Source: an uncultured Candidatus Saccharibacteria bacterium
GTDB taxonomy: Bacteria > Patescibacteriota > Dojkabacteria > SC72
DNA length: 64,000 nt
Direction: 5' to 3'
Assembly: GCA_964610125.1 (NCBI GenBank)
Contig: CAZSUV010000001.1
Location: forward strand, 45,599-109,598
Below the pieces are notes generated by a model, which was not told where the DNA came from, ran no database searches, and was given only the letters and a program-made list of their open reading frames with translations. Both the position numbers and the translations under genes were made by a program. Within the stretch, counting starts at the first letter, position 1; each line of letters begins with the position of its first letter. Positions 7,757 through 63,092 of this stretch are shown here, piece after piece.

Positions 7757-7767
7757 ACATTCTAGAC

Positions 7768-11848: not shown

Positions 11849-11857
11849 TATTACTTG

Positions 11858-15144: not shown

Positions 15145-15145
15145 G

Positions 15146-15946
15146 TTATATTGTTTTAATCTTAATAGGTAGCTTGTTACTTTCGTCTGTGAGTAGTAAA
15201 TCTACCTTAGGGAACTTGTATTGTGGGTGTATGAATTCTAAGGTATATCTTCCTTTGGTCCACATTCTGTTGGTTAAGAAATATCCACTTGCTCCGGTTC
15301 GGTTAGCATACAATATTTTTCCATCTTCCCCCTTCATATATGTTATGACATTTGGTACGGATACCATATCTCCAGTATACAACCATATGTTAATATTCCC
15401 AGGTAATTTTTCTAAGTTTTGGATTGTAAATTCATAGTTCTTTCGGTTTTCTTCTGAGATGATTAATCTGTCTTGTACGATTGGAGTTGGTATGGCCTGA
15501 GGAATATTCTCTACAGGAATCTCTTCATTTGTTGTTTGCAAAAGGTTGCCACCGATAATGGGGCTTGTTTTTTCCTTGAAGCTTTTTTGTACTAACTTGC
15601 CATCTGCAGATGGTTTTAATTCTGGCTTTGTTCTTGCTTGTTGCATTTCACTGTTCATCCATACTCTTTGTGTTGGTGCGGTTATTGCTCCTATATAGTT
15701 CTTTATGAACACATCTGCGTCTTGCTCATTGATAGGGACTAAGCCTAAAAAGATCCCAGCACCAGAAGTGAGGATACATATTGGGATTCCAACTAATCCT
15801 GGGATCGTTTTAGCTACAACGAGATATATCATTAACCCGCCGAATCCCAACCCGATAGCAAGATAGGCGAATTCTTTCAGAGTAAACTTTGAAAAGAGTT
15901 TGAACTCTACATCTAATATATTTTGCGGTATCGGATGTTGTCTCAT
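15146..15946 (-). CDS. VirB3/ConD-like membrane protein (two N-terminal TM helices plus ~190-aa C-terminal domain)
   Basis: TM hairpin YLAIGLGFGGLMIYLVV...GIPICILTSGAGIFLGLV. Sits immediately upstream of the VirB4-like operon genes; stop and next start are 1 nt apart. Confidence 0.45.
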   Translation of the reverse strand: MRQHPIPQNILDVEFKLFSKFTLKEFAYLAIGLGFGGLMIYLVVAKTIPGLVGIPICILTSGAGIFLGLVPINEQDADVFIKNYIGAITAPTQRVWMNSEMQQARTKPELKPSADGKLVQKSFKEKTSPIIGGNLLQTTNEEIPVENIPQAIPTPIVQDRLIISEENRKNYEFTIQNLEKLPGNINIWLYTGDMVSVPNVITYMKGEDGKILYANRTGASGYFLTNRMWTKGRYTLEFIHPQYKFPKVDLLLTDESNKLPIKIKTI

Positions 15947-26278: not shown

Positions 26279-28039
26279 CTATCTTCTCTTTTCTGTCTTT
26301 CTAATGATGCTCTCTTCGAAATACTTCTTGGGTTTGAATAACTTCCATGTGCTTAATTCTGTTGATTTGTATGCATCTGAATCTACAAATTTTTCTACTA
26401 ATATTCTGCCTTTGGGTCTGCTGTAAATATACCAGCCTGTTGTGATGACTACGATTCCAAGTATTACCTTGAATATCACCGAATCAAATATTCCTGTACT
26501 TGGAGTATTTGGTGTTTCTTCTGATGCGTTTGGATCTTCACAATTTTGTGATACAGTGATGTTAACGGATGATCTTAATTGTGATGGATCGGTAGGTACT
26601 TCTTCTGGAGTTACGACCACCTCATTCTTGTTTGTTCCTGTCAGCGCACTTGCCCCTGCTTGAGCTTGAAGTAATACGGTTAATGATTGGTTGGCACTTA
26701 ATGTCCAACCTCCTGTTTTTGATATGGTAATTTGCTGTGAGCTTCCAACTGTTGCAGAGGTTACATAGCCTGAATCAGTTACTAAGACTCCGTTAATCTT
26801 TGTTGTTCCTGCTGCATATGTAAATCCCAGTGGTAGCTTATCTACAATGGAAGTAATTTTCTGAGAAGTTGTACTCTTGTTTGTGACATTGATTGTGTAT
26901 TGTACAGTATTTGAAGGTGCTACTCTTTCTACGCATGTAAGATTTGATGTGTTAGCTACAGTGAAGCTTGAAGCGACTACTGGAGTTCCACCATTATCAG
27001 GATCTTCATCTTGTGCATCTGGGAATGTGATATTACTGGTAGCGGAGCCAATGGATACGTTTGAAACGTAAACATCAGATTTAACAGCTAATGTCCCTGT
27101 ATGATTATCGAGTTGAGAGAAGCTCTTAGAATTTGAGAAATTTGTTGCACTGTAAAGATCTTGTTCTAAAATCTCTATGATTCCCGCAGTGGTATCTACT
27201 GTAAATCCTTTGGTCATTACTAATTCAGGATATGTATTTTCGAATGTGAAGCTAATTTTCATATTATCTGATGAGTTAAGATTTCCGGCAGAAATCTTAG
27301 CATTAGAAACTTTCATAGTAGTACCGTCTAATCGAGTTGTAAGTTGGAGATTACTGACACTTGATTCTCCTGCTTGGGTAACTTCAATCAGTCTTCTACA
27401 GATAGGGGAGTTGATTTGTTGATTGTCAGAAGTAGTGCCTGTTGCAACGATATTTATAGCGGTTGCAGTACTTAAATCTGCAATTGTTTTCTTTATACTT
27501 AATTTGTTAGGTGTAATGACATCTGGTTCTACCGTCTCGTTATTTATGACGAATTTGTAATCAGAATATTCTTTGTCAAAGACAGCTTCTATGGTTAGCT
27601 GATCAGTAGATGAAATTTCTCCAGTTACAATCTTCCCATTTTTGTCTGTAATGGTCATTGCATTACATCTTGAATCTGCGATGGTTTGTAACTGACAGAT
27701 TTGGTACAAATCTTGTTGAGTTGAGCTATTAAGATTATTTGTTGAAAGTTTGTTTGTTGCGCAGGCAGCTTTACATGTCTCAGTGCTAGTATTTGTGGCT
27801 ACTTCAAATTGGAAAGCTCGTCTTGGATCTCCACATTCTGTAGTTACGGCTGGATCTATGTAGTAACATCCACAGGTTACATTGTTAGTGGTATCAGTGT
27901 TGGTGTTTGTATCCTTGATTGTGTAGAAATATATTGCTACACCTATTAGTGCTAAGCCAAATATGCCTGTTATGACAAGAAGAACGGTTTGTAATTTCTT
28001 TGATTTTTTCTGTGTTGTTACTCTTATTCCTTCTTCCAT
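26279..28039 (-). CDS. large Ser/Thr/Asn-rich surface protein with N-terminal signal anchor and C-terminal PSTG plus TM segment
   Basis: N-terminal TM LLVITGIFGLALIGVAIYFY. C-terminal ...TPNTPSTGIFDSVIFKVILGIVVITTGWYIY then a basic stretch; 586 aa. Confidence 0.55.
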   Translation of the reverse strand: MEEGIRVTTQKKSKKLQTVLLVITGIFGLALIGVAIYFYTIKDTNTNTDTTNNVTCGCYYIDPAVTTECGDPRRAFQFEVATNTSTETCKAACATNKLSTNNLNSSTQQDLYQICQLQTIADSRCNAMTITDKNGKIVTGEISSTDQLTIEAVFDKEYSDYKFVINNETVEPDVITPNKLSIKKTIADLSTATAINIVATGTTSDNQQINSPICRRLIEVTQAGESSVSNLQLTTRLDGTTMKVSNAKISAGNLNSSDNMKISFTFENTYPELVMTKGFTVDTTAGIIEILEQDLYSATNFSNSKSFSQLDNHTGTLAVKSDVYVSNVSIGSATSNITFPDAQDEDPDNGGTPVVASSFTVANTSNLTCVERVAPSNTVQYTINVTNKSTTSQKITSIVDKLPLGFTYAAGTTKINGVLVTDSGYVTSATVGSSQQITISKTGGWTLSANQSLTVLLQAQAGASALTGTNKNEVVVTPEEVPTDPSQLRSSVNITVSQNCEDPNASEETPNTPSTGIFDSVIFKVILGIVVITTGWYIYSRPKGRILVEKFVDSDAYKSTELSTWKLFKPKKYFEESIIRKTEKRR

Positions 28040-33686: not shown

Positions 33687-35852
33687 CTATTCCTTGGTTG
33701 TTGATGCTTCTTCTTGTTCTACCTGTTGTATTTGTTCATATATTGAAGCTAAGTCTTCTCCAACATTTAGATCTACATTTAGATCTGGTTCTGGTGGAGT
33801 AGGAGGAGTATTTTCAACTACAGGAGTAGTAGGAGCAATATTTTCTTCTGCTTGGATTGGAGCTGGTTCTTCAGCTGGAATTGGTTTTGGAGTAGGTGTT
33901 GGAACAACTACTTCTTTCTCTACCACAGGTTCAGGAACTATTTCCTCTTTCACTGGTTCTGGTGTAACTTCTTCAACAACTGGTTCTGGTTCAACTGCAA
34001 CCTCTTCGATTGGTTCAGGAATAGGATCAACCTTTGGTTCCTCTACAGGAATTGGAGTTTGTATAGTCATTGTAGATTCCTTTGGAACAGGAGCAGCATA
34101 GTTATCCCAAACATCTGTAGTTGGTTTTGCTTCTTCAACAGGTGTCTCTACTAAACTTGTTACTTCTGATTCAGTCGGTGTAAATGCAGGAATAGGTTCC
34201 GTAGGAAGAGTAGGAATATATCCACCATTCTGTGGAGCATCCTCTTGTTTGTACTGCTCTTCTTTCCAGACCTTAAATATGATTATTGGCGCTACTATTG
34301 CTGCAATGATTACTAATATTCCAACACCAATGATTATTAATGTCCTCTGACTTATCTCCATTCCCAATATCTTTACATATCCCTCAGCCACAGTTTCATC
34401 GGATTGAATTGTAAATGTCCAAGACTTAGTTACAGATTTACCATTGGAATCTTCAAAATATATCTCCATCTTGTGTAATCCAGTAGTAAGATCTTCTGAA
34501 GGTTGATATATGATTGTATGTTCATGATCAGAGATCTGGTTGATGCTTACATCACTACTTACATCCTTGTCATCAAGCTTTACTAATATACTTTCCTCAT
34601 CTATGGTTGCATTAGTTCCCGCAATTATGGTTGCTTTGGTTGTAACCTGTTTGTTCTGAACAGTATCCGTACTGTTTGGAGACATATTTATGACTTGTGG
34701 ATCAGCTATGACCACAACATCATCCTCAACTGGTTTTGTAGAAGTTCCACTTACAACTATCTCTGGTGAAAGCCCAATACCTGTTAATGAAGGACTCTGG
34801 TTGTCGCTAGCTCTAAGGATTGCTTTGTAATTACCTGGTTCTAAGTTAGTAGTATCTATGATGTATGATGTCGTCTTTGAAGAAATATTGTTGTTGATCA
34901 TTACCCAATCAGTTTGATCAGTTGGATTTTGACTTACATACAACTCATACTTAGTTATTTCATTTAAATCAGTTGCTTCCCATGATATTTTCAAGGATTG
35001 GCCTCTGTCTACTCTTGTACTCGAAACAGGCGAGAGAACTTTAACATTTGGAATATCATTGGTTGCAGGACTTACACTTACTACCCAAGTCTGTGAGGCT
35101 AAGTGCTTACTGTATCCATCATGAATGAATACATTAGCAAGGTAGCTTGCAGGAGTATCTGTTGAACCTTGGAATTTGATTGTTAATTTACCATTAGAAC
35201 CATCTTCAATGATTGTTGGTTTTAACCATGTAGCCCCTGGGGTGAATGAGTAACTGTAGTTAATATGGTCACCATCAATATCTAATGCAGTAAGGGTATA
35301 TTCATACACTATTCCTGTCTTGATATCTTGTGATGGCTTGGATCCTGCTGGAACAGATGTAAATTCAGGGATCAAGTTGCTAGTCATAGCTTTCAAACCT
35401 AGAATGTCATATTCACTACTGATTTTACATGCTACACTTCCACCTCCAACTTTAGAGATGAGACCTAGCATATCTACAGTTCCAGATTTCATTGGTGTAA
35501 ATTTGAAGCTAGTAGCAAGTGAAGTAGGGGATTTGGTAAATTCTTCAGTATGGATTGTATTTCCCGTCGAGTCAGTTATTTTTAATGAAGCAATTCCAGC
35601 ATCTTTTAACGTAGCATCTACCTGGATTGTAATCTCTTTCCCAACCTCTAAGGTATATGGATTAACATTTGGAAGAGATATGACGCAAGGGTTTTCATCA
35701 CTAACAGTAATGCTATCAAAAGCCATATTTCGGATATCAAATGACCCATTTATGACTCCCCATGTGACTAAAGGTATTGAGAGCAACAAAAAGAATGTGG
35801 AATATATTACAAAAAGTGACTTGGTTTTTCGTGGGGCATTTCGAATCTTCAT
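33687..35852 (-). CDS. large bitopic surface protein: signal peptide, ~490-aa extracellular beta-rich region, single TM, ~190-aa Pro/Glu/Val-rich cytoplasmic tail
   Basis: N-terminal signal LFVIYSTFFLLLSIPLVTWG; TM helix LIIIGVGILVIIAAIVAPIIIF then KVWKEE; tail contains APTTPVVENTPPT. Confidence 0.6.
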   Translation of the reverse strand: MKIRNAPRKTKSLFVIYSTFFLLLSIPLVTWGVINGSFDIRNMAFDSITVSDENPCVISLPNVNPYTLEVGKEITIQVDATLKDAGIASLKITDSTGNTIHTEEFTKSPTSLATSFKFTPMKSGTVDMLGLISKVGGGSVACKISSEYDILGLKAMTSNLIPEFTSVPAGSKPSQDIKTGIVYEYTLTALDIDGDHINYSYSFTPGATWLKPTIIEDGSNGKLTIKFQGSTDTPASYLANVFIHDGYSKHLASQTWVVSVSPATNDIPNVKVLSPVSSTRVDRGQSLKISWEATDLNEITKYELYVSQNPTDQTDWVMINNNISSKTTSYIIDTTNLEPGNYKAILRASDNQSPSLTGIGLSPEIVVSGTSTKPVEDDVVVIADPQVINMSPNSTDTVQNKQVTTKATIIAGTNATIDEESILVKLDDKDVSSDVSINQISDHEHTIIYQPSEDLTTGLHKMEIYFEDSNGKSVTKSWTFTIQSDETVAEGYVKILGMEISQRTLIIIGVGILVIIAAIVAPIIIFKVWKEEQYKQEDAPQNGGYIPTLPTEPIPAFTPTESEVTSLVETPVEEAKPTTDVWDNYAAPVPKESTMTIQTPIPVEEPKVDPIPEPIEEVAVEPEPVVEEVTPEPVKEEIVPEPVVEKEVVVPTPTPKPIPAEEPAPIQAEENIAPTTPVVENTPPTPPEPDLNVDLNVGEDLASIYEQIQQVEQEEASTTKE

Positions 35853-50247: not shown

Positions 50248-53200
50248 ATGGGTATTAAAACACAAAAAGTATTAAGACTAATATCAAAGATAATATTGAT
50301 ATTGGTGGGTGTAGGATTAGTTGGTATTGCTGGCTACTATGTATACAAATCCATAGCGTTTAAACCTCAAAATGTTGTAGTAACCAATATCACAGATGGC
50401 TCTGCTACAGTGACTTGGACAACAACATCCCCTATGAAAGGTATTGTATATGTTAAGAAGGATAAAGGATTACTTCCTGGTCCTCTAGGGATTGTAGGAT
50501 CTAGTATGGCATACGATGACAGAGATGTGAGTGATGCTCAGAAGACTTGTGTTGATGTATTTAACAAAAAAGCTTCCGAAACTAAAGATTCAACATTTAG
50601 TGTAAGTGGTAGTAACTTTGATTGTGAGAATGTTAAGGTTACTAAAATGGGATCTTACTACACCCACAGTGTAACAGTAACTGATTTGGATGAGAATTCT
50701 ACATACAACTTTGTAGTAGGTGATGGTATATGGAGTTTTAAAGAGAGTGTTTCAATAGTTAAAACATTTGGTGTATTAGAAACCATTGGAGAACCTAAAC
50801 CAATATTTGGGAAAGTCGTTGGTGATGATGAAACTGTTTCTGAAGATGGTTTAGTATATATTACTTTCAATGATGGTAGCGAAGGCAAGGACAGTATTGT
50901 TTACAGTAGTACAACTAATGATGATGGAGGATGGTATGTGGATGCATCTAGTGTTAGAGATTCCAATGGGAATGTTATTTCACTTGAGTTAACCAATGAT
51001 TCCTTTAAAGCCAAAGGGGTGTACAAGAACTATGGTAGTAGTGATGAACAGATCTGGGTTTTAGGATACTTCAATGGCGCATATCCTGATATAACGGTAA
51101 AGAAAAGTATTCCTACTAGTATGGGGATATTCGGTAGGTTAGTAATGGGCGTGTATGCATCATGTACTTATGAGGATGTTAATGCTGCTGCCCATGGCGG
51201 GCCAGCGCTTGATTCTTCTAAGTGTGATCTCACAAATCTTACAGATGCAGAAACAAAAAAATTGGGTTATGGAAATGTAATAAGATTATTAAATGTGCAA
51301 AATGGTGGAGATGCTAACGCTACAATACAAAAAGTATTTGGTAGCTCTGATCCTATAACCATAGCGGGAAACATCAATGCTGTGTATGGAACTACTCTCG
51401 ATGGTACGTCTACGAAAGTAACGATAGATAATGCTTCGAGTCGTTACGCAGATGTTCACGGAGAAAGTACTAGTGCAAATGGAGATGTAAAAAAGGAAGA
51501 TTGTATTGGTGGAATACCAGGAGGAGGTAGAGCGGCTGGTTGTTATAAATCTTCTTCATATTGTAGTGATACGCTTACATGCCATAAGAATCCGGATGGA
51601 ATTGTTGTTTCTTGCGAGGAAATTGCTGGTAAGTGTGGTTATGTTGCCCCCCCTAACGCCCCAGTTTGTTCTCCAATTGTTTGTACTCCAACGGGTCAAG
51701 CATCTTCCATTATGTGTGTTGATGGTGTAGTTAAGTCATACTCTAATAGTAGTTGTAGCAGCTCAGGAACTGGTAGTGAGCAGAATAGTATTGGACTAAA
51801 GTGTAGAAGTCGTAACTTTAATGATTGCGGAACAGGGAAAATATGTGTTGATAAAAAATGTACTTCTGCAAGAGATGCTACCCAAACGAGTTGTGGAGGT
51901 TATGCTATAGATCATTGCGAAAAATCTGGAGAGAATCAATATAAAATTTGTACATCTGCTGGTTGGGCTTTTGGAACTGGTACATGTGATGGTGTTGGGG
52001 GTAGTAATACAACTGCAGGAAGTTTCTCTTGCGATGAAAACAGAAAGTGTGCAGTAACCTTTGGAGATCAAACAGTAACAGTAACATCTACTCAAATGAA
52101 GAAGATATTGAATGAATCATATACTTCTGGGGACGGTGTCATCGTGGCTTCCAATATAGATATCAATAAATTCCTTAAATTTGGTGGAACCAATGCCGCG
52201 AATATTGTATCAGACAATCTGGCATTGAAAGAAGTTGCAATTAAAGAGTTAAGCATTTGGGAAGAAGAAGTTACTAAATATACTGCAGGTACAGTGCCAG
52301 ATATAACGGATAAAATTAAGGCGCTTTGTGATGCACTTGGAGGAACAACTAATAACTCATATAATCCGACAAATTGTACTTTACCAGAAACTCAGAATCT
52401 TAATCCATTTAAACCTTCTAGAGTATATGCTGCGGATTCATCTTCTGATTCATACACCTTATATATGCCAGAGTATGGGATGTATAGTTTTCAATTAGGG
52501 AATTATACTGTTTCAACTGAAGTCTCGGATGGTAACACCATATATCTTTTCTACATTGAGACTAATGGCAAGGAAGGTTTCCAGATACCGATAGACCCGG
52601 ATAATCCAACTTCTGAGGAAGATATAATTTTGAATTCTGCTTCGTATCAAATAACCTATAAACAAGAGTCTACAGCCCAGCAGTATGAGATTAAAAAAGG
52701 AATTAATATTATTTCCTTTGACTTTGTACCAGTATCAATAGATTCCGGTGCCTATACAGCTCAAGATATTATAATTCAAGCATCAGACAATGGAGTAGAA
52801 GTCCAATACATCTCAACCTTTGAAGGAGGTAGGTGGAATAGTGGATATTCATGCTCAAGTGGAACATGTACAGGGAACAATTTCATCGTAGTTCCTGGTA
52901 AAGGATATCTAGTATATGCAACCGAGGATGGAACAGTAACAATCCCAGGATATAATCTAACCTCATCAGTACCCATAGCATTCTCAGCTGGATGGAACCT
53001 AGTAGGAGTACACGGATATACTACAGCATATACAGCACGATCATTTATTGACTCCATAAATAGTATCAATGGTCTTACCGCAAACAATGTGTCATGGTGG
53101 CCTACATCCAAGAGTAAATACGAAGGAGTAGAGGTAGACAATGGAACACAATATGGATTAGATTTCTCAATAAGTCCAAATAATGGATATTTTGTAAGAA

Positions 53201-53292
53201 TATCTAAATTTGCGCCAACAGATACCAAGTGTAAATCTTTGATCTGGAATACCGGTGGAAGCCTAAATGGATCTTGTGGAAATACAAAATAA
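50248..53292 (+). CDS. giant signal-anchored surface protein (1014 aa) with N-terminal FN3-like domain and Cys-rich central region
   Basis: TM ILILVGVGLVGIAGYYVY; VVVTNITDGSATVTWTTTSPMKGIVYV (FN3-like); ~30 Cys in the aa 400-600 region. Confidence 0.6.
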   Translation: MGIKTQKVLRLISKIILILVGVGLVGIAGYYVYKSIAFKPQNVVVTNITDGSATVTWTTTSPMKGIVYVKKDKGLLPGPLGIVGSSMAYDDRDVSDAQKTCVDVFNKKASETKDSTFSVSGSNFDCENVKVTKMGSYYTHSVTVTDLDENSTYNFVVGDGIWSFKESVSIVKTFGVLETIGEPKPIFGKVVGDDETVSEDGLVYITFNDGSEGKDSIVYSSTTNDDGGWYVDASSVRDSNGNVISLELTNDSFKAKGVYKNYGSSDEQIWVLGYFNGAYPDITVKKSIPTSMGIFGRLVMGVYASCTYEDVNAAAHGGPALDSSKCDLTNLTDAETKKLGYGNVIRLLNVQNGGDANATIQKVFGSSDPITIAGNINAVYGTTLDGTSTKVTIDNASSRYADVHGESTSANGDVKKEDCIGGIPGGGRAAGCYKSSSYCSDTLTCHKNPDGIVVSCEEIAGKCGYVAPPNAPVCSPIVCTPTGQASSIMCVDGVVKSYSNSSCSSSGTGSEQNSIGLKCRSRNFNDCGTGKICVDKKCTSARDATQTSCGGYAIDHCEKSGENQYKICTSAGWAFGTGTCDGVGGSNTTAGSFSCDENRKCAVTFGDQTVTVTSTQMKKILNESYTSGDGVIVASNIDINKFLKFGGTNAANIVSDNLALKEVAIKELSIWEEEVTKYTAGTVPDITDKIKALCDALGGTTNNSYNPTNCTLPETQNLNPFKPSRVYAADSSSDSYTLYMPEYGMYSFQLGNYTVSTEVSDGNTIYLFYIETNGKEGFQIPIDPDNPTSEEDIILNSASYQITYKQESTAQQYEIKKGINIISFDFVPVSIDSGAYTAQDIIIQASDNGVEVQYISTFEGGRWNSGYSCSSGTCTGNNFIVVPGKGYLVYATEDGTVTIPGYNLTSSVPIAFSAGWNLVGVHGYTTAYTARSFIDSINSINGLTANNVSWWPTSKSKYEGVEVDNGTQYGLDFSISPNNGYFVRISKFAPTDTKCKSLIWNTGGSLNGSCGNTK

Positions 53293-53316
53293 CTAAATTA
53301 AATATATTTAAATAAC

Positions 53317-53649
53317 ATGGATACAATACCACCAGTATTTTGGATGATAATTGTTAGCGTCTTGACCATAATGGTATGTCTCATACTCTACTATGTAGCT
53401 ATGCTCATAAAAGAGACTAGAACGACTGTAGCAGACGCGAGAGATACAATGAAACAGGCAACCAAGATGCTTCAACAATTAGAACTCATAGTCAATGATG
53501 TCCAAAGCAGTGTATCTACAATTAGGGGAACAGTAGAAGAGGTAAACCAATCAATCTTGGCTCCAATTAGAAAAATAGCGGGTGGGATATTAACAGCATC
53601 TGTATTCCTTGGAGGTCTAAAGAAAAAAGAATCAAGAACTGAAGAATAA
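53317..53649 (+). CDS. small membrane protein with coiled-coil segment
   Basis: N-terminal TM VFWMIIVSVLTIMVCLILYYVAMLI and C-terminal hydrophobic GGILTASVFLGGL. Confidence 0.4.
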   Translation: MDTIPPVFWMIIVSVLTIMVCLILYYVAMLIKETRTTVADARDTMKQATKMLQQLELIVNDVQSSVSTIRGTVEEVNQSILAPIRKIAGGILTASVFLGGLKKKESRTEE

Positions 53650-53688
53650 CGTTGTATTTCTCCGTATTACTAGCTATTATAGTTATTA

Positions 53689-55314
53689 ATGAAGATTGCT
53701 CGTGTACCATCAAAAAAACGTAATATTATAACGTTAATAATACTCATTGTAGGATTACCTCTTGTAGTATATGCATCATATCAAGTCGTACAGATGGTAA
53801 CTAAAGCCAGCGCAGATACTGAGCCCAAAAATGTCTTGATTAGTAATCTAACAACCTCCTCGGCTACTATCACCTGGACTACCGATTCTCAAACCAGAGG
53901 AACTGTAGCTACAGTAAAGAATAGTACAGAAGGGTCACCTGTAATAGACACTAGAGGAAATACTAAACGATATACTCATTTTGTAGAATTAACAGGTCTA
54001 GAACCAAATACAACATATAGCTTTGTCGTAACATCGGATACAACAAAATATACTGCAACAACAGGCGGAAACAAATTTTCATTTAAAACTGCAACAATAA
54101 CTGCTGAAACACCAACCCCTAATCCTATCCATGGCTCAGTAGATGATGTATCTGGAGATGATGTCATTGTATTTGCTGTCTTAAAAGACAAATCGGTATA
54201 TCCAGTCTCTGCAACAATGCCAAGTGGAGGCAATTGGATTATGGATCTCTCTGCTTTTAGAAAAGTCTCTGACAATTCATTAGTCATATCAAATAGTGAT
54301 ACAAATCTTGTACTTGTTGCGATATCTGCTACTGGAAGTGGAGATATGTTCTCAGGATCTTACTCGGAACTTTTTGATAGTAATGGTAAATTAAAGAGTA
54401 CCCAATCTTTTAATATCGGCGAAAACACAGATTTGTATTCATATTTTCCAAATACGGCTATGTTGTTAGCAGAAAATGCTGTAGTTGAAGAGGATGATGA
54501 CAAAGACCCTGTTGTTGTTCCAGAGGAGCCGGAAGAAGAAACTCCTACTGAGGAAGAGCCTACGACTGGAGGGCGTACCTTTAGGTTGGTTAAAGATCTC
54601 TCATGGGAAGATATGGTTACTGCCGGAGGTTTAACATGGCCATATGGAGCAAGTACTGTACAGATAACTAATGTTACTGATACAGGATTTACAGTCATAT
54701 GGGCATCACAGAATAGCGAGCAAGGATACCTCAACTATGGTACAAGCTCTAGGGATCTTTCAAGCCAGGGTAATGATGAGAGAGATGGGGTGACGAATAG
54801 GGGGAAGTATTACATACATAGTGTGTCTTTGACTAGATTACAGCCTGAGACTAAGTACTACTTTGAGGTTGTTTCGGGGACGAACAAATATGACAACAGC
54901 GGAAAGAAATATACGGTATCAACATTTGCAACTTTAAGTACGCCACCTTCATATGTATCGATAACTGGGACTGTAAGTAATATGCCAGAGAGTGAAGAAG
55001 GGATTATATTTGGATATATAAAGGATATAGATGGAACAGGCACAACTGGACAAGCCGGTATTATATCTGCAATCTTAGACGAAAATGGAAAGTGGATATT
55101 ATCAATAGCAGATAGCAGATCCTCTGATGGTAGTGTGTATTTTGAATACACTTCTGCAGATAGTATGTACTTTGATATTCTGAGTACAATTCCTTCATTT
55201 ACACCTGTTGCCGTATCTATGAATGGTATTACTAGTAAGGATATTGGGATAGCTATAAGCTCAAGTGAAACTACTACTACGATACCTAAATTATCTAACT
55301 ATGGAGTTATTTAA
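53689..55314 (+). CDS. signal-anchored surface protein with two FN3-like domains (paralog of the 50248 N-terminus)
   Basis: TM IITLIILIVGLPLVVYA; VLISNLTTSSATITWTTDSQTRGTVA and VQITNVTDTGFTVIWASQNSEQGYLNYG. Confidence 0.6.
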   Translation: MKIARVPSKKRNIITLIILIVGLPLVVYASYQVVQMVTKASADTEPKNVLISNLTTSSATITWTTDSQTRGTVATVKNSTEGSPVIDTRGNTKRYTHFVELTGLEPNTTYSFVVTSDTTKYTATTGGNKFSFKTATITAETPTPNPIHGSVDDVSGDDVIVFAVLKDKSVYPVSATMPSGGNWIMDLSAFRKVSDNSLVISNSDTNLVLVAISATGSGDMFSGSYSELFDSNGKLKSTQSFNIGENTDLYSYFPNTAMLLAENAVVEEDDDKDPVVVPEEPEEETPTEEEPTTGGRTFRLVKDLSWEDMVTAGGLTWPYGASTVQITNVTDTGFTVIWASQNSEQGYLNYGTSSRDLSSQGNDERDGVTNRGKYYIHSVSLTRLQPETKYYFEVVSGTNKYDNSGKKYTVSTFATLSTPPSYVSITGTVSNMPESEEGIIFGYIKDIDGTGTTGQAGIISAILDENGKWILSIADSRSSDGSVYFEYTSADSMYFDILSTIPSFTPVAVSMNGITSKDIGIAISSSETTTTIPKLSNYGVI

Positions 55315-55361
55315 TAGTTTGCTAGAAACCATTATAATATCTGATATAATCAGGGACTTGC

Positions 55362-56669
55362 ATGTATACAGAACATAACCAAACAAAGAAAAACAAGAAA
55401 GCGTTATTATTACTATTAGTACTTGGAGTATTTGGGTTTGTGGCGTTTAAATATACTAAGGTTAAGGATATTGTGGCAAAAGATAATAATGCCGAAGTAT
55501 CAACTTGCTGTGGAGCTACAATTACAGACGAAAGTCCTGATTACACATCAAAATTCTTTCTAGTTGATGAAAGTGGAGAGATATCAGATATAACCCCTGT
55601 AAAATCTCCAACTGAAAACACTGTTTTAGGCACGTCCACTGGTGGATGTACGACAAATAGTCTATATTCGGGAAATTTAGCATGTGTAAAAAGTAAGGAT
55701 AATCAATTCAGTATTAATGGTAAAACATTTCTAGCATCCGAAGTTAACATAACATTGGATTCAATTACTGCACCATTAATCCTCTTTTCAGGATCGAGTA
55801 AGTATGATATTGAGAATTCAAATAGAAATAACCCAGGCGTATATAAACCTGCTGGAGAACAGTACAGCAAAAAACAGTCAGATGTTGTTACAACTCCAGG
55901 AGAAGGACACGATGAGGCTGAGGCAAAATTGGCCAGTACTCCAATAAAGAAAAGCTTTGGTACGGAATATTCTATTACAACATCTGATACGCCCAATTCT
56001 GAACCACAGGGTGATATTGTTGTTAATAAATACGTTGAAAGTGATTGTGTCGAGTGTGGGAATATTTCAAATCCTAACCCGAAGAAAACAAATGACACGT
56101 CGGCTGTTTTCTCGGCAATAAATTTTAAGACACCAGGATACTTGGAAAAGGATGACAATGTGATAGAAATAGAAGGTCAGTGCCCAGATTATCGTGATTT
56201 CAGTCTGCTATCCATAATCAACCCAACAGTTTGTTCAAATCCATGGAATATTTTAGCGGGGACTCTTGCCTCACTTTTTCCATCGCATGATTGGAATCAA
56301 TGTGATCCTGAGAAAGATACGGGATGTGTAAGCTCACAAAATTTAGTAGTAAAGATGAATCCAATTTTTAAAGAAACAAATTCATATATGGATGCTAGAA
56401 ATTCTTCCGCAATGGACCCTAAAGCTGCGGAATCATATGTCCCAATATATGTTTTAACTCCATGTATAGCAAGAGTAACGGGAAAATCTAGTTCATTTGA
56501 CGTTAAAGTTAAGTGTGTATGGGATATGTCATATTTATTTTATGAAAATGCTGCCTCTGCATATGACAGTAATCCAGGCTCAGATGATACAATGAGTGAT
56601 GAGCAGTTCATGGAATACTTAAAAACCGAAACAGTCAAAAGAGGATCAGAAAAACTGGTTTCAATGTAA
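55362..56669 (+). CDS. signal-anchored secreted protein (435 aa), Cys-containing
   Basis: TM ALLLLLVLGVFGFVAF; no motif recognised. Confidence 0.45.
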   Translation: MYTEHNQTKKNKKALLLLLVLGVFGFVAFKYTKVKDIVAKDNNAEVSTCCGATITDESPDYTSKFFLVDESGEISDITPVKSPTENTVLGTSTGGCTTNSLYSGNLACVKSKDNQFSINGKTFLASEVNITLDSITAPLILFSGSSKYDIENSNRNNPGVYKPAGEQYSKKQSDVVTTPGEGHDEAEAKLASTPIKKSFGTEYSITTSDTPNSEPQGDIVVNKYVESDCVECGNISNPNPKKTNDTSAVFSAINFKTPGYLEKDDNVIEIEGQCPDYRDFSLLSIINPTVCSNPWNILAGTLASLFPSHDWNQCDPEKDTGCVSSQNLVVKMNPIFKETNSYMDARNSSAMDPKAAESYVPIYVLTPCIARVTGKSSSFDVKVKCVWDMSYLFYENAASAYDSNPGSDDTMSDEQFMEYLKTETVKRGSEKLVSM

Positions 56670-56695
56670 TAATTTAAATTAATTAAATATTTAAT

Positions 56696-58189
56696 ATGAG
56701 TTACGTATCTAAAACTTACGAATTTCTAGGAAAAGTTGAAAGTCTTTTTAATAGGAAGATGTTTAAAACTGCATTCATAGCAATTTCGAGCATGTTCCTG
56801 TTCTTTGGAGTCATGAATGTGTATGCACAAACAGATGACATCAAAATATCTCCTGACTGGGAGGGAACAAAAGCTTTCTACAATGAAGCTAGTGGAACCA
56901 CTGCAGATGAAGATAATATGACTAGTCATTCAGGGCAGCTAGGTTTGAATACTGCATGGGTTGTATTGTCTACAATGGCACCTGAATATACCGAGGGAGC
57001 TGATGCCCTTATGAATAATCCAGATATCCCTGCCGATATGAAGATGGGTTTGATTGGTTTCTCAGATAATGCTTTAGCTTTTGTATATGAAAATCAGGCG
57101 AATGTTGATGTGATTGCTCATTTACAAGATGAGTGGGTTCCTGGACATAAAGAATCAAGCACAGGACTTTATGCTGCAAATGGAACAAATGTTAGTGGTT
57201 ATCAAAGTTTGATGGATTCTGGAATAGCACCAATCTGGAATCAAATGCGAAATATATCCTATGTGTTTTTTGTTGTGATAATGATTGTAATTGGATTCAT
57301 GATTATGTTTAGAAGCAAACTTGGAGGTCAGACAATGGTATCAATAGGGAATACGATTCCTAGTGTTATTGTAAGTTTGATATTAGTAACCTTTAGTTTT
57401 GCTATAGCAGGTGTAATTATTGATTTTGGAGGAGTCATAGTTGCGTTACTGTATTCAATATTTCAAGGGGAGAGTATTTCTATCGGTAAATTTGGTCCTC
57501 TCTTTAGTCAACTTTTCAGCAAAGATATGGCTGAACAATATGCAAATGTAGTTACAACGGATATTTCGACAGCTCTACAGAGCTTCTCATCCGGTATTGT
57601 TGGTGGATGGTTTAAACTTGTTTGGGCTTTGGATAAGACGATGTTAATGGGAATCGTTGGAATATTAGCAGCAATAATAGGAGCAGGAGTTGTATTTGTA
57701 GGCGCAATAAAGCTTTTGATTACATTATACAAAGCTTATTTTGAACTTCTGCTTAATGTGGTTGTTGGGCCAATAACCATAATGCTTGGTACATTACCAG
57801 GAAAAGAGAATATGAAGATGAATTGGCTTACGAGTATAGTAAGGAATGTGTTGGTTTTTCCAATTGCTTACTTTATTATCAATATACCGATATTCTTAAT
57901 GCAATCAAGTGGTGTCCTATTAAGTCTTCCGGATAAACTTACAGGAGCTAACCTAGGGGATGCTGCTACAACTGCGGCTGTGTTGGATTCAGATAAGGGG
58001 TATATAGGATTGATTATTTCATTTGCATTAAGGGTTTTTGTTCTTTACTATGCATGTCAGGCTCCAAAATTTGCTGAAGCTATTGTACCTGTAATGGAAA
58101 CAAATAAGGCTGCTGCAGAGGCTATGGCTAGTGCAAAGATGAGTATGTCAAAGATGCCTTTGATTGGTGGCCTATTTGCCGGTAAATAG
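56696..58189 (+). CDS. VirB6/TrbL/ConG-like polytopic membrane protein
   Basis: Signal peptide, ~160-aa extracytoplasmic domain, then 6-7 TM helices (e.g. ISYVFFVVIMIVIGFMIMF; LMGIVGILAAIIGAGVVFVGAI). Lies immediately upstream of a wall-hydrolase gene, as in Gram-positive conjugation loci. Confidence 0.45.
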   Translation: MSYVSKTYEFLGKVESLFNRKMFKTAFIAISSMFLFFGVMNVYAQTDDIKISPDWEGTKAFYNEASGTTADEDNMTSHSGQLGLNTAWVVLSTMAPEYTEGADALMNNPDIPADMKMGLIGFSDNALAFVYENQANVDVIAHLQDEWVPGHKESSTGLYAANGTNVSGYQSLMDSGIAPIWNQMRNISYVFFVVIMIVIGFMIMFRSKLGGQTMVSIGNTIPSVIVSLILVTFSFAIAGVIIDFGGVIVALLYSIFQGESISIGKFGPLFSQLFSKDMAEQYANVVTTDISTALQSFSSGIVGGWFKLVWALDKTMLMGIVGILAAIIGAGVVFVGAIKLLITLYKAYFELLLNVVVGPITIMLGTLPGKENMKMNWLTSIVRNVLVFPIAYFIINIPIFLMQSSGVLLSLPDKLTGANLGDAATTAAVLDSDKGYIGLIISFALRVFVLYYACQAPKFAEAIVPVMETNKAAAEAMASAKMSMSKMPLIGGLFAGK

Positions 58190-58217
58190 CATAATTTGAA
58201 TATAGACTTAATAGCTA

Positions 58218-60905
58218 ATGGGAAAGGGTAAGAAGCCAAAAGGTGAAGAAGAGGTATTAGGTCAAATATTTGACTTCATATTTAAGGAGGCTAAAAAAAA
58301 GCCAGATAAACGTAAACCTCTCAAATTCACAGGAATTTCTACTTCTAAGGAGGTAGTTGATGGATTAGCTGCTGCTTTGGAGCAACCTGGAATGTATGTT
58401 ACAGACCAAATACTCTCAAATATGAATGATGCTTTGACTATTGAATTTGGGAGAATAAATGCTGACGAAAGTGGTACAAACAAAGCAAAGCTCACAACAA
58501 CAAGCTTAATCGGTTTTCTTGATGACCCAAATAAGTTTTTTGATAAACCTAAGAATGCTGCGAAGATGGGGATTAGGGAAGCAACAAAAGCAGCCTTTTT
58601 GGGAAGAGTTCATCAAGGGTTAGTGGCTAATGCTTGGGCACATAAATATAATTTAGATCTTGATGCTAAAAAGGCAATACGAATGCATTACCAGGCAGAT
58701 AGCTCGGGAAGAGAAGCTGAAGCTGGAAGGGCTTTTGCGTCTGCATCTGCATTCGCCATAAGTGGAGGAGACGATAACTCAAGAAAAAATTATGTTGCAA
58801 GTAGAAGTGCGGCTTTAGTGGGAAGGGAGATGTTTGGTAGGAGTGGTTGGGAATCTATGAGTGAAGAAAGAAAGGCAGAATTACAAAAGGCAATTATTAG
58901 AGGAAAGGATGCAGTAAAAGATTACCTTGGGACAACATACACAGGTTCTAGTGCTCGCTTAGCAGGAATGGCATTGTCGAAATATGATTTATTATCAAAA
59001 ACGCTTAATAAACCAATAGACGTTTTTGATAACAAAACGTATAACTCTTTAGAAGCTCGAAATCTCGAAGGTCGTATTGAAGATATGAGAATGTATTTAC
59101 GTCGAAATCCTGGAATGAGTATTAATGATAAAGCTAAAGTTGAAGCAGGAATTGATAAATTAGGACAAGCATTGGTAATTGTATCTGGGAATCATGTAGA
59201 TTTGGGTGATATTAATGCCGCAAAAATTGCACTACAAAGTAAAATCTCGGGTTACAAAAGTTCACTATCTGCAGCTCAAAAGGCCGGAGATAAAAATCAA
59301 ATCAAATATTACAAAGAACAAATCCGTAATCTAAAAGAAGGAGATAGAGAATTAAATAATATGCGTTTTTGGGGAACCATTGGAAAGTATGAAGGATTGG
59401 CAGGATCGTTGAAAGATGTATTAGGAGAGGGGTTGGCACCGAATGCGATTACAAGTGTTCTGGATGGCTCGTTTTATGATAAGTATAGGAACTCATTTGC
59501 TTTGCCTGTTACAGATAAAAATAAAGGGAAATTTGGTTCGTATTCGTGGTATTTAAAAGATGAAAAAGGAGTAAAAAAGTTAGAGAAACATGATGAAGAA
59601 ATTACAATATTAACTGCAGATTTGGCAGATTTATCAAAACTTACAGGAGCAGCAAGGAATAAAGCTGCAATGAGAAACAATTTTAATGTGATGATGACAA
59701 ATATATATTATCTTACACCACGTTCAATTCTGAGAACTTTATTTGTAAATGGAGAAGGCTTTGTATATTTATCATATAAAACCTCACAAAATGCTCTCGC
59801 AAAACTTGGAAAGGCAGGATTAGATTTTGACAAATTAATGAAGGATGGTGCGTACAGAAAATCACTAAGGGCTATGGGAGTAGACGCAAATAGTTTATAT
59901 TTAACCCGCGGATTGGCTCAAATATTTTCATTCGGACAACGAAAGAGAGATATGATCAAAACTTGGATGGATGATCATCTATTTAAACAATTAAGACAAA
60001 AGATATATAACAGCCTAATCAAAAAAATAACAGATACGGAAGCTTTAGCATTATTAGAGAAATGGTTAGTGAAAGGAGGCTTCGAGACTATAGCAAAGGC
60101 TTTGGTTATAGGTATTTTAGATGCCTTAGGAATAGCTGCAACTGGAGGTCTAGGATCATTCCTAGTGCCAATATTAAGCGCTCTAGTAGTAGACGTACTA
60201 TATGGAGCTGTAAAAATCATTGCTCAAGTTATATTACTAGTTGGCTTGGGAATGATAGGGTTCATAATATTAGGATTTTCAAATGACAAGAAAAACTTTG
60301 ATTCTCAAACCTATGCATACACTAATGTCGTACCTGGCGAAGTCGTCACTAATCCAAACTTCAAAGGAACTAGTCCAATTGTTCAACCCGATGATCCAAG
60401 TAATATTGGGAACTTCGTAGGTGGAACTCTTCCAGACGGAGAAAAATGTCTCTTGGGCTCCGGTAGCTTCCATTGTTCTCAAGGACCATATGGAAGTTAT
60501 TCACACCAAAAAGTCGCAGCAATAGATGTCACAGGTGTTAACTATTTCTATGCCCCAGCTTTCTGTGGAAACAATAATTGTAAAGTAACATATTCAGGAT
60601 CTACATCCTGTACCAATGGCTATGCAGGAGGAATGATGATATTCACTGCTTCATACGGAGGAAATACATACGAATTTAAGCTCATACACGTACAACCAGG
60701 AGCTGGAAATGGAGCAACACTCTCTTCTGGGCAACGTGTAGCAAGAGTAATGACTGTACAAGAAACTACAAATGCTTGCTCCTCTGGAATGCATCTGCAT
60801 TTACAAACGAAGATGAATGGAAGTGTTGTGAACCCAAGAGATGTATTAAGCAACAGCACTTCTAGTGGAGGGTTCTCATGTAGCGTAAGTGTATGTGATC
60901 CATAA
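58218..60905 (+). CDS. large membrane protein: ~600-aa Lys/Ala-rich helical N-domain, TM hairpin, C-terminal M23 (LytM-like) peptidase domain
   Basis: TM helices LVIGILDALGIAATGGLGSFLVPILSALVV and ILLVGLGMIGFIILGF. C-terminal SSGMHLHLQTKMNGSVVNP matches the M23 HxH...NG..VNP block. First M23 motif is divergent (SHQKVAAID). Confidence 0.55.
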   Translation: MGKGKKPKGEEEVLGQIFDFIFKEAKKKPDKRKPLKFTGISTSKEVVDGLAAALEQPGMYVTDQILSNMNDALTIEFGRINADESGTNKAKLTTTSLIGFLDDPNKFFDKPKNAAKMGIREATKAAFLGRVHQGLVANAWAHKYNLDLDAKKAIRMHYQADSSGREAEAGRAFASASAFAISGGDDNSRKNYVASRSAALVGREMFGRSGWESMSEERKAELQKAIIRGKDAVKDYLGTTYTGSSARLAGMALSKYDLLSKTLNKPIDVFDNKTYNSLEARNLEGRIEDMRMYLRRNPGMSINDKAKVEAGIDKLGQALVIVSGNHVDLGDINAAKIALQSKISGYKSSLSAAQKAGDKNQIKYYKEQIRNLKEGDRELNNMRFWGTIGKYEGLAGSLKDVLGEGLAPNAITSVLDGSFYDKYRNSFALPVTDKNKGKFGSYSWYLKDEKGVKKLEKHDEEITILTADLADLSKLTGAARNKAAMRNNFNVMMTNIYYLTPRSILRTLFVNGEGFVYLSYKTSQNALAKLGKAGLDFDKLMKDGAYRKSLRAMGVDANSLYLTRGLAQIFSFGQRKRDMIKTWMDDHLFKQLRQKIYNSLIKKITDTEALALLEKWLVKGGFETIAKALVIGILDALGIAATGGLGSFLVPILSALVVDVLYGAVKIIAQVILLVGLGMIGFIILGFSNDKKNFDSQTYAYTNVVPGEVVTNPNFKGTSPIVQPDDPSNIGNFVGGTLPDGEKCLLGSGSFHCSQGPYGSYSHQKVAAIDVTGVNYFYAPAFCGNNNCKVTYSGSTSCTNGYAGGMMIFTASYGGNTYEFKLIHVQPGAGNGATLSSGQRVARVMTVQETTNACSSGMHLHLQTKMNGSVVNPRDVLSNSTSSGGFSCSVSVCDP

Positions 60906-60922
60906 TTTGAAAAATATTAATA

Positions 60923-61900
60923 ATGGATAAAAAGAAAAAGATTGTCTTAATTGTAATCATAGGAATATTTGTAATAGCCTTGATTATCGCCTTGTACTTT
61001 GTGTTCAAATCACAAACCAATCCATATCCCAAGGAAGCCATTAAACAAGAATCACTCAATTCGACCACTGAAACCATTGCCCTGGGGGATACAGATATTG
61101 AATCATCAGATGGTTACCTATACACCGTCTCCAAAACCGTTATGGTTGAAAAAGTAGCAGAATTTGCGTACAGCCTTAGTCCCAAACTCATACAAACAAT
61201 CAATGAAAAAGGATCTTACTATGAATGGCGTAATGGAGAGGATTATGTAATCTACGAACTTGAACAAAATACCGTTATCTTTGCTTTAAAACAGGGTGTA
61301 ATTTGGAATGAAGCTAGTATCAATGGATACTCATTCACTCAATTTTCAAAGAATTACTTTGGAAAAAACTGGACATATACAACCGCGGAAAGCGAAAAAC
61401 AACCAAGTGGAGAAACAATATACTATGCAAAAAGACAGATCGAGGGAATAAATGTGGAAATGGTTTTAAACAATCAGTCTACTGACTATCTGGCTATAAA
61501 AAACGGAAAAATAGTATATGGTAAAATCCTGTTATCAGATTTTGTAAAAGTAGAAGGCAAACTTCCATTAATTAGTTCAGAAGATTTAGATAAATACCTC
61601 AACCTTGAAAGCTACCCTAAGGAAATATATCCAGAATATGGTCCAATACAAAATACGATACTATCAGCAGTTGATTACAAAAGCGAAGATTTCGATACAA
61701 TAGCGAAATCTATGACAAATTGTAAGAGCTTATCATCTAGCATAATATATCTTTACAAATCTCTTAACCAAGGCAATCTAACCCCTGTATACAAACTTGA
61801 CTTGCAGTGTGAGCTAACGTACAAAGATACGATATATACAATCCCTGCAATAGGGTACGTTAATGCAATTGATCCTAAATACGTATCTACCGCGGAGTAA
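60923..61900 (+). CDS. signal-anchored extracytoplasmic protein (325 aa)
   Basis: TM IVLIVIIGIFVIALIIALYFVF; no motif recognised. Confidence 0.45.
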   Translation: MDKKKKIVLIVIIGIFVIALIIALYFVFKSQTNPYPKEAIKQESLNSTTETIALGDTDIESSDGYLYTVSKTVMVEKVAEFAYSLSPKLIQTINEKGSYYEWRNGEDYVIYELEQNTVIFALKQGVIWNEASINGYSFTQFSKNYFGKNWTYTTAESEKQPSGETIYYAKRQIEGINVEMVLNNQSTDYLAIKNGKIVYGKILLSDFVKVEGKLPLISSEDLDKYLNLESYPKEIYPEYGPIQNTILSAVDYKSEDFDTIAKSMTNCKSLSSSIIYLYKSLNQGNLTPVYKLDLQCELTYKDTIYTIPAIGYVNAIDPKYVSTAE

Positions 61901-61919
61901 ACTGTGATACAATAGGTCT

Positions 61920-63092
61920 ATGAAATCACTCTTCAAACTCATTTTTACACTCATTCTTTTGCTAATACCAGCAAAGATTTTTGCATACACAATCAACACT
62001 GTAACAGATCAAAAGTTTGATGCTACAATTGCGGATCAAACACAAACAAAGTATGTAACCCCAACTACCATATATATATCCCAAATCACTACAACCTCTC
62101 CAGAGCTACAAAAAAATCCATCGCTTTGGGTCAAAACCTTGTATTACTATTCCATAACCAGATTACATTTCGCAGACCTCCCATACAACTACCTTGTTGA
62201 TACTAATGGGGCAATATATGAAGGCCGAAGTGGAGGTATAGGGGCAAACCCAGAGCTCAGAGATGCTCAAGGAAGCATCTTGATAGGATACCTCTCCAAT
62301 GATTCCATACTAACCAATAGGGCATCTACATCACTTCGAAGTCTTGTAGATTCAATTGCTTCAACCTGGGGAATAGCAAACCTCTCCGTAGTAAAGCTAA
62401 CCATCTCTCAACAAGAAGGACAATTAAGCAAATTAGTACCAGAAGAACTAACTGGAGAATTTAAACAATCAGTCTTAGATACATTCTCAGGATGGACAGG
62501 ATATACCACTGAGAAACTTACGTACAAAGCGAAAATAGAGGAAGTAACTTACAACAAAGAAGTAACCATAGGGTCAAAATTACATGTAACGGTAAAAGTA
62601 AAAAATCTGAATGATTTCACCTGGTTAACAGACAAAAACCCAATATATATATCAGCCAAAGACGTAAAACAAAGCAGATTTGCCATAAATGGGGTATGGG
62701 ATAGCTTCACAAAACCAACACATATCTCGGATAAAGCAATTAAGTCCGGAGAAACAGCTACATTTGAATTTGATCTTTCAGCTCAAATAGCACCAGGCGA
62801 AACATTTGAAAAATTCGTAGTGCAAAAATTTGATGCTCAACCATTTGCAGAAACTGAGTTTGAAGTAAAATTCAATATTGTAAAAGGAGACAAAACATTA
62901 GTACAGGTATCTTCTTCCGAATATGGATTTGCAAATATTCGAGAATGCCAATGGTATAGTTGTAAGATAATAGATACTGTAGATAACGGAGTGGTATACA
63001 TACTCCTTGCTGAAGAGAACGGTTGGATGAAGATTCAGTACACTGAAAATACAGTAGGATGGGTATTCTCTAGATACATGAAAAAGATTTAA
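61920..63092 (+). CDS. secreted peptidoglycan-binding protein: amidase_2/PGRP-like domain plus C-terminal SH3b-like domain
   Basis: Signal peptide LILLLIPAKIFA; YNYLVDTNGAIYEGRSGGIGAN resembles the amidase_2 core but lacks a canonical first zinc His; C-terminal GWMKIQYTENTVGWVFSRYM is SH3b-like. Confidence 0.45.
   Translation: MKSLFKLIFTLILLLIPAKIFAYTINTVTDQKFDATIADQTQTKYVTPTTIYISQITTTSPELQKNPSLWVKTLYYYSITRLHFADLPYNYLVDTNGAIYEGRSGGIGANPELRDAQGSILIGYLSNDSILTNRASTSLRSLVDSIASTWGIANLSVVKLTISQQEGQLSKLVPEELTGEFKQSVLDTFSGWTGYTTEKLTYKAKIEEVTYNKEVTIGSKLHVTVKVKNLNDFTWLTDKNPIYISAKDVKQSRFAINGVWDSFTKPTHISDKAIKSGETATFEFDLSAQIAPGETFEKFVVQKFDAQPFAETEFEVKFNIVKGDKTLVQVSSSEYGFANIRECQWYSCKIIDTVDNGVVYILLAEENGWMKIQYTENTVGWVFSRYMKKI

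Follow-up and report, generated by a model that had tools for sequence, protein, structure and literature searches.

The window examined here is a 64,000-nucleotide stretch of low-GC (~36% GC) chromosomal DNA (contig CAZSUV010000001.1, positions 45,599 to 109,598) from a member of the Dojkabacteria/WS6 (Patescibacteria), a group of which, to our knowledge, no member has been cultivated. It carries a block of eight co-directional genes, g1 to g8, all of whose products are membrane-anchored, and the sixth of these genes, g6, is the subject of this work. The 895-amino acid (aa) product of g6 joins a large helical body to a hydrophobic block and a C-terminal tail of the M23 peptidase type. This tail is an exchangeable cassette, recurrently swapped at a single junction a short way outside the membrane and in most cases along with the downstream gene g7. 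A preliminary description of this DNA had recognized the peptidase, but missed its recurrent exchange, which is the most informative feature of the locus. The whole analysis was performed in silico and concerns uncultivated organisms, with the nearest named relatives being metagenome-assembled genomes assigned to 'candidate division WS6' and 'Candidatus Dojkabacteria'. The features of g6 and its cassette are arranged as follows.

50248-63092, plus strand: the block g1 to g8, encoding proteins of 1014, 110, 541, 435, 497, 895, 325 and 390 aa, with gaps of 17-47 bp between genes.
58218-60905, plus strand: g6, the target gene, with an ATG start and encoding 895 aa, read as a cytoplasmic body, a hydrophobic block and a predicted extracellular M23 tail.
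58218-60077, plus strand: N-terminal body (aa 1-620), basic, ~70% helical, Cys-free and lineage-specific.
60078-60287, plus strand: hydrophobic block (aa ~621-690; about 67-70 aa), probably three packed transmembrane (TM) helices.
60288-60362, plus strand: putative extracellular linker (aa 691-715), YAYTNVVPGEVVTNPNF, common to both tail types in the sub-family, with the recombination junction at its end.
60363-60902, plus strand: M23 peptidase tail (aa 716-895), with eight conserved Cys residues (744, 753, 783, 788, 798, 854, 888 and 893).
60501-60527, plus strand: first metal motif SHQKVAAID (aa 762-770), or S-H763-x6-D770, an H(x)6D motif.
60681-60692, plus strand: LIHV, containing the third catalytic His, H824, 35 residues N-terminal of the HxH motif.
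60786-60836, plus strand: GMHLHLQTKMNGSVVNP (aa 857-873), which reads G-M-H859-L-H861 ... NG..VNP and holds the HxH motif and the C-terminal M23 signature.
60363-61900, plus strand: the exchangeable cassette, composed of the g6 tail and g7, placed by homology to the breakpoints in near-isogenic pairs.
60923-61900, plus strand: g7, encoding a bitopic protein of 325 aa with an N-terminal TM anchor and an ectodomain of ~290 aa, of no known family.

The N-terminal body is basic and rich in Lys, Ala and Leu (isoelectric point 9.6; K 11%, A 10%, L 10%), contains no Cys, and is ~70% helical in an AlphaFold model that is itself weak (predicted template-modelling score, pTM, of 0.41); the long basic helical domain of the preliminary description is thereby borne out. 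No relatives of these 620 residues were found outside the g6 family. The best-conserved part of the entire protein is its first ~35 residues (58218-58322), where L14, Q16, I17, D19, F20, F22 and R32 are invariant and the family consensus reads EEEVLGQIFDFIFKEAKKxPDKRKP. This extreme N-terminus may serve as a docking peptide for a cytoplasmic partner.

The hydrophobic block is the sole hydrophobic stretch of the g6 protein, and by hydropathy it divides into three helices of ~21 residues (622-642, 645-665 and 667-687) separated by an invariant TGG and by K666. Invariant positions within the block are G638, G643, G644, D659, K666 and G678, of which D659 lies within the second helix. An earlier reading of this segment as a TM hairpin is less likely than the three-helix arrangement, since with two helices the peptidase would remain on the cytoplasmic side. 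The more likely topology, as predicted, is an N-terminus inside, three TM crossings and a C-terminus outside. This orientation is suggested by the lack of a signal peptide, by the occurrence of zero Cys in aa 1-690 against eight conserved Cys in the tail, by the Lys and other basic residues that flank the cytoplasmic helix ends, and by the nature of the tail as a wall-hydrolase type of domain.

Both motifs quoted in the preliminary description are present in the 895-aa open reading frame (ORF) exactly as given there. Judged by sequence and by modelled structure, the C-terminus of g6 is an M23/LytM-fold peptidase that keeps all five catalytic positions, and its catalytic competence is predicted. 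These positions (H763, D770, H824, H859 and H861) are invariant in 22 aligned tails. Among 86 diverged tails, drawn from representatives with bodies <30% identical, H763 is kept in 85 and each of the other four in all 86. At the level of the family, the Pfam profile PF01551 is matched (E<=0.1; best 5.2e-9) by 24 of 29 full-length homologues, which are exactly those with an M23 tail, while the five with another tail give no match to it. Alignment of tail profiles places the HLH and NG..V.P segments in line with those of LytM, NMB0315, the M23 peptidase 9gy1 and the phage enzyme LysTt72. The AlphaFold (AF2) model of aa 696-895 reached a pTM of 0.80, with a core predicted local distance difference test score (pLDDT) of 85-90. 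In a Foldseek comparison of this model with the PDB the top 17 matches were all of the M23/LytM fold (prob 0.82-1.00; TM-score to target <=0.61), and against BFVD it returned 25 phage M23 peptidases at E<=1e-3. Together, the family-level profile matches and the structural matches of the tail model lift the M23 signal beyond chance, and M23 membership agrees with every sequence and fold criterion tested except the Pfam cutoff for this one member. The profile and structure comparisons proposed with the preliminary description thus uphold its assignment of a membrane-tethered M23 domain behind a large cytoplasmic helical body, with a significant M23 match and intact metal ligands both found at the family level. 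Within one tail type the mean column identity of the tail is 57% against 42% for the body, and this better conservation is consistent with selection for catalysis, as for an active enzyme.

The first metal motif had been singled out as divergent and stretched, and this description holds in part. The H(x)6D spacing is unusual for M23B, yet it falls inside the known H(x)nD range and is thus not exceptional, and an M23 domain with an odd first motif of this kind is ordinary. The M23 family is defined by the H(x)nD and HxH motifs, with H(x)12D in LasA and H(x)7D in phi29 gp13, and an extra catalytic His ~30 residues before HxH is a further M23 criterion (PMC9662197). The known values of n are 3, 7 and 12-13 (PMC9662197, PMC8715609). 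Within the g6 family, the spacer takes lengths of 6, 7, 8, 9, 11, 14, 17 and 18 in members scored with a simple pattern, and such variation between two retained ligands marks the first motif as a variable loop and not as a degenerate site. The order and spacing of the catalytic positions (763/770/824/859/861) also parallel those of beta-lytic protease (22/36/82/121/123; PMC8715609).

Among the M23B endopeptidases, Staphylococcus aureus LytM, lysostaphin and phage LysTt72 (PDB 8s3m) share with the g6 tail the same β-sheet-core fold and the HxH ... NG..V(D/N)P signature. The five catalytic residues of g6 follow the same order as in LytM, where the catalytic and ligand positions are 210/214/260/291/293, and with a similar spacing. 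Of these, LytM His260 has been cited (PMC9662197). The g6 tail differs from the M23B enzymes in its H(x)6D in place of H(x)3D, its eight conserved Cys residues and its very low sequence similarity. The M23A enzymes LasA and beta-lytic protease, along with phi29 gp13, offer precedents for a long first-motif spacer (H(x)12D, His22/Asp36 and H(x)7D, respectively), but these are secreted or virion-associated soluble enzymes, and no specific sequence affinity between them and g6 was found. In g6 the domain follows what are probably three TM helices and is fused through them to the cytoplasmic body of 620 aa, of which no characterized M23 enzyme is known to have a counterpart.

The M23 domain is one of several tails carried by this family. 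In five of the first 29 homologues an unrelated domain stands in its place, and among 143 full-length representatives, classed with local hidden Markov models, 99 have an M23 tail, 34 an HExxH zincin and 10 some other or divergent tail. The second type retains H-E-x-x-H and E-W-G-A in all 34 sequences and the following D in 31 of them, with the two motifs situated 11-19 residues apart, and also contains four invariant Cys. From these motifs it is read as a gluzincin arrangement, HExxH...ExxxD, and as an unclassified zincin, present in relatives and not in the window. Its only similarity to known proteins lies in weak, sub-threshold matches to the collagenase ColH and to the eCIS_core zincin. 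A CHAP domain is added in some members, as in P0049 (M23 plus CHAP) and P0064 (CHAP). All of the alternative tails are peptidase or peptidoglycan-hydrolase types (M23, CHAP or zincin). No description of the g6 family or of its cassette was found in the literature searched.

Different tails are found on bodies that are 97%, 94% and 85% identical, and the firm evidence for exchange comes from three sequenced near-isogenic pairs, compared together with their flanks (L020/L021, L023/L022 and L024/L025). The compared flanks, which are g5 in the first two pairs as well as g8 and uvrD in L020/L021, are 82-98% identical. In these two pairs the g6 body remains ~85-93% identical up to the linker '...PGExxxNPNF', whereupon identity falls to ~15%, and g7 products from different tail types share 21-27% identity. 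In the DNA, identity drops from 75-95% to 30-45% within a single 90-bp interval in g6 and recovers at the g7/g8 boundary. In L024/L025, a lineage without g7, DNA identity stands at 95-100% until it collapses ~20 codons past the final TM helix, and it rises again at g8. In each of the three pairs the collapse at the junction takes place within ~90 bp. In the same pair the 3' half of g5 and the g6 body (L024 ~5178-7900) are 95-100% identical in DNA, while the flanks (5' g5, g8 and uvrD) are ~70-85% identical. That the body is closer than its flanks suggests a recent transfer of the body between diverged genomes, with recombination on both sides of the junction. At least 21 switches of tail type were counted on a neighbour-joining tree of g6 bodies with 133 tips (with shuffled labels the mean was 30 and the minimum 25), a figure to be read as that of a distance tree of 50%-identity representatives.

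The block as a whole is syntenic in one chromosomal slot, between rsmB/rsmE and uvrD, in every related locus examined, and the slot is kept even by members whose N-terminal profile match has an E-value of 1e-17 to 1e-36. This fixed position argues for a vertically inherited core locus, and not for a mobile element or prophage. Two members are of unusual build. In L019, P0157 (1424 aa; 10001-14275) is a giant whose M23 domain (SH-x6-D, LHIAV, HYHID) follows a Cys-rich insert of ~380 aa, and g7 is missing. In L016, P0049 (1126 aa; 10001-13381) ends in the M23 plus C-terminal CHAP tail, and the place of g7 is taken by an ORF of ~135 aa (~13404-13809) with a TM anchor; this arrangement is possibly a third cassette type.

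The type of g7 tracks the type of tail in 16 of 16 scorable loci. Within one tail type the g7 products share 47-59% identity, even where the accompanying bodies share no more than 40-53%. Remote homology links the two g7 types (hhalign 97%, E=4e-11, 22% identity), and neither gave a match to any Pfam family or solved structure.

On balance, the probable reading of g6 is that of a surface-tethered, cis-acting and predicted-active zinc M23 endopeptidase with a polymorphic head. Held ~25-55 residues from the membrane, the tail would attack the peptidoglycan that it can reach from the producer's own surface, at peptide stems or cross-links, and would supply the lytic activity of an envelope module. 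The 620-aa cytoplasmic body might position or gate the tail, and g7, as an outward-facing membrane protein, could be its extracellular partner in the capacity of a regulator, an inhibitor or a dock. The repeated swapping of folds suggests that selection of a conflict-type or frequency-dependent kind acts on the exposed head, as opposed to neutral housekeeping drift.

Several observations weigh against this reading. The topology on which it depends is drawn from hydropathy and composition only. The protein of the window, taken by itself, scores below the gathering cutoff of PF01551 (E=0.01; 16.5 bits against 28.7), and the match spans profile positions 23-96 of 96, with the first motif outside. 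The proposed partner g7 is absent in L019, L024 and L025 and is replaced in L016 by the ~135-aa protein noted above, such that it is not an obligatory partner of g6, and its linkage to the tail could be the mere adjacency of two anciently diverged segments. Finally, a housekeeping autolysin that acts in cis would not typically have one catalytic fold repeatedly substituted for another on almost identical backgrounds, a pattern that suits a trans-acting weapon at least equally well.

A trans-acting weapon is the alternative that survives best, and it is a possible, if doubtful, one. Here the body would present or release a wall-lytic head against the wall of a host or competitor, g7 would protect the producer, and an arms race, or differences in wall chemistry among targets, would drive the swapping of head and g7. 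In its favour, the g6 system pairs a conserved body with C-terminal enzyme folds that differ beyond a sharp junction on backgrounds 85-97% identical, the outward-facing product of the downstream gene co-varies with tail type, and all of the tails are lytic-enzyme types also used as antibacterial effectors elsewhere. Patescibacteria are, furthermore, generally host-dependent epibionts (PMC12102498). The same conserved N-terminal body, fixed junction, unrelated C-terminal folds and co-varying downstream gene define the likeness of g6 to the polymorphic toxins (CdiA-CT, Rhs and LXG). Unlike these, the g6 head appears to stay tethered to its producer through a short linker and TM helices, a Pfam search of 29 members returned no domain for delivery (LXG, Rhs, VENN, PAAR etc.), and no cleavage site was detected. 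The two g7 types are homologous to one another although the folds of their tails differ, which is not typical of immunity proteins, and g7 is dispensable in lineages that still swap tails. There are only two or three head types, all wall-peptidase-like and each under purifying selection, and the locus is a single-copy core locus, with no spare or orphan cassettes found elsewhere in the 64-kb window. In its fullest form, this alternative would make g6 an undescribed polymorphic, surface-presented wall-lytic effector of the Dojkabacteria, in which a lineage-specific carrier body bears interchangeable heads (M23, the new gluzincin or CHAP) to open the wall of a competing or host cell where contact is made, g7 provides self-protection or docking, and the eight-gene block constitutes an episymbiont attachment or feeding apparatus; this proposal is tentative, and we would sooner expect it to fail than to hold.

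The preliminary description had instead likened the protein to the channel-associated hydrolases of type IV secretion systems (T4SS), under which g6 would be a functional analogue of VirB1 or PrgK that opens the producer's own wall for a monoderm-type T4SS. A minimal module of this kind is indeed present in the window (12081-15946, minus strand), and bears on this proposal together with g5, the gene directly preceding g6.

15146-15946, minus strand: PrgI/VirB3 family protein (PF12666, E=1e-6).
14500-15144, minus strand: protein of 214 aa with no Pfam match, possibly the TrsD-like partner described for Patescibacteria.
12081-14507, minus strand: VirB4 (P-loop_TraG, E=1e-28).
56696-58189, plus strand: g5, encoding a polytopic membrane protein of 497 aa, directly 5' of g6, with a weak TrbL/VirB6 match.

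A chromosomal, relaxase-less T4SS has been described for Patescibacteria, in which the wall hydrolases are frequently encoded apart from virB4 and some of those of the VirB1 type contain M23 (PMC12102498). The module of the window matches this Patescibacterial T4SS, and its PrgI and VirB4 genes have neither VirB6 nor a coupling protein or hydrolase as a neighbour in the window, such that a T4SS role for g6 is possible. The M23 and CHAP repertoire of the g6 family also corresponds to that of monoderm T4SS hydrolases such as PrgK. These hydrolases (PrgK of pCF10, TraG of pIP501 and CD419/TrsG) are likewise large, membrane-anchored, multi-domain proteins with LytM/M23 and CHAP modules (PMC12102498). 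In contrast to them, g6 appears to have no lytic transglycosylase domain, in that no SLT or lysozyme Pfam domain was found in 29 family members, and its anchor follows a 620-aa cytoplasmic domain instead of being N-terminal. No T4SS homology of the N-terminal body was found. The neighbours of g6 are not recognizable T4SS parts, and VirB4 lies ~44 kb and >30 coding sequences away. BLAST searches of 19 loci, and the gene tables of loci that were compared, likewise showed no VirB4 closer than 10 kb to the block. Moreover, fold swapping would be unexpected for an assembly factor. The similarity to T4SS hydrolases is one of architecture, and a dedicated T4SS function for g6 is improbable. The suggestion made with the preliminary description, that the protein could punch a way through the wall so that an apparatus can be assembled, is possible. 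The match of g5 to TrbL/VirB6, which would otherwise count toward this function, has an E-value of 0.005 and recurs in only one of 11 orthologues; no Pfam domain occurs among the 120 listed of 372 g5 homologues, and no PDB match was obtained. The identification of g5 as VirB6 finds no support at the family level on these grounds, and caution is warranted against the VirB6 label, as the weak match could spread as annotation.

The LytM fold also occurs in non-catalytic factors, such as EnvC, NlpD and SpoIIQ, and the g6 tail could by analogy be a scaffold whose sole role is to bind or activate a different enzyme or to contribute to a channel. Degenerate LytM domains do appear among the PDB matches of the tail model (EnvC, 8c0j; SpoIIQ, 3tuf), and SpoIIQ (3tuf_B), of the SpoIIIA-SpoIIQ sporulation channel, is likewise a TM-anchored LytM-fold ectodomain among the membrane proteins of a multi-gene system. 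SpoIIQ has an N-terminal TM anchor and no large cytoplasmic domain, and in Bacillus subtilis it is degenerate, whereas the catalytic set of g6 is intact. Degenerate LytM factors lose the five catalytic positions that are 99-100% conserved in the 86 diverged tails, and the alternative tails keep an invariant HExxH...E-W-G-A-D or add CHAP, which points to catalysis as the property under selection. A scaffold is accordingly very improbable. The remaining proposal, of a domesticated or remnant phage tape-measure protein, is effectively refuted: the architecture does recall tape-measure proteins with a C-terminal M23 domain (e.g. Pb2 of phage T5), which have a long helical N-terminus and hydrophobic segments, and the best PDB and BFVD structural matches of the tail are phage peptidases, but the likeness of architecture noted in the preliminary description is not accompanied by any sequence or profile similarity, with no tape-measure PHROG assigned to the window protein or to 16 N-terminal bodies, no match of either tail by tblastn in 50,697 phage records, and no phage genes flanking a vertically inherited chromosomal block whose position between rsmB/rsmE and uvrD is fixed across the lineage.

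As a probable surface-tethered enzyme with a polymorphic head, g6 bears on how the ultra-small Patescibacteria build their envelope and pass the walls of the cells on which they depend. The family is of interest chiefly for its recurrent swapping of heads, which is unusual in a core gene, and also for its lineage-specific body and for the second head, the unclassified zincin. It is also a testable object: in this membrane protein of the core genome, two unrelated zinc-peptidase folds replace each other as the predicted external head at a single junction, and the three near-isogenic pairs are natural swap experiments. Should the heads act on the producer's own wall, the locus would be a rare example of an autolysin under balancing or conflict selection, arising for instance from phage or inhibitor pressure on an exposed enzyme. 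Should they act on the walls of other cells, it would represent a new architecture for the delivery or anchoring of antibacterial or host-breaching enzymes. Three uncharacterized domains are flagged by this analysis, namely the 620-aa body, the HExxH...EWGAD tail and the ectodomain of g7.

The other members of the block encode further membrane proteins, of which g1, g3 and g4 are bitopic, with fn3-like domains in two of them.

50248-53292, plus strand: g1, 1014 aa, a TM-anchored Cys-rich ectodomain (30 Cys) with an fn3-like N-terminal domain and no family assignment.
53317-53649, plus strand: g2, 110 aa, with one TM segment and a coiled segment.
55362-56669, plus strand: g4, 435 aa, a large TM-anchored Cys-rich ectodomain (12 Cys) with no family assignment.
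61920-63092, plus strand: g8, 390 aa, with one N-terminal hydrophobic segment and a C-terminal SH3_3 domain (wall-binding type), the conserved 3' flank of the cassette.

The matches of g2 are weak and none is reliable (DUF948, MCP signalling, and the NCBIfam 'MMCAP2_0566 conjugal transfer' domain at E=0.02). Between L022 and L023, g4 is 50% identical while g5 is 92% identical, and g4 may on this basis be another mosaic or variable gene of the block. The N-terminal hydrophobic segment of g8 is read as a putative signal peptide. In L024 (1-761) and L025 (1-734), which lack g7, a protein with a YkuD L,D-transpeptidase domain is encoded at the head of the block, in the position that the large g1 has in other loci. 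Together with the SH3_3 domain of g8 and this YkuD protein, a G5/transglycosylase-like gene located just downstream gives the neighbourhood a cell-wall theme.

Housekeeping genes flank the block on both sides, with those for PNPase, RsmB and RsmE upstream and those for UvrD, EF-G and EF-Tu downstream. Situated among housekeeping genes of the window are also two uncharacterized ORFs on the minus strand, one of 586 aa (26279-28039) with no Pfam match, and one of 721 aa (33687-35852) in which the only domain is a bacterial Ig (Big_7) domain.

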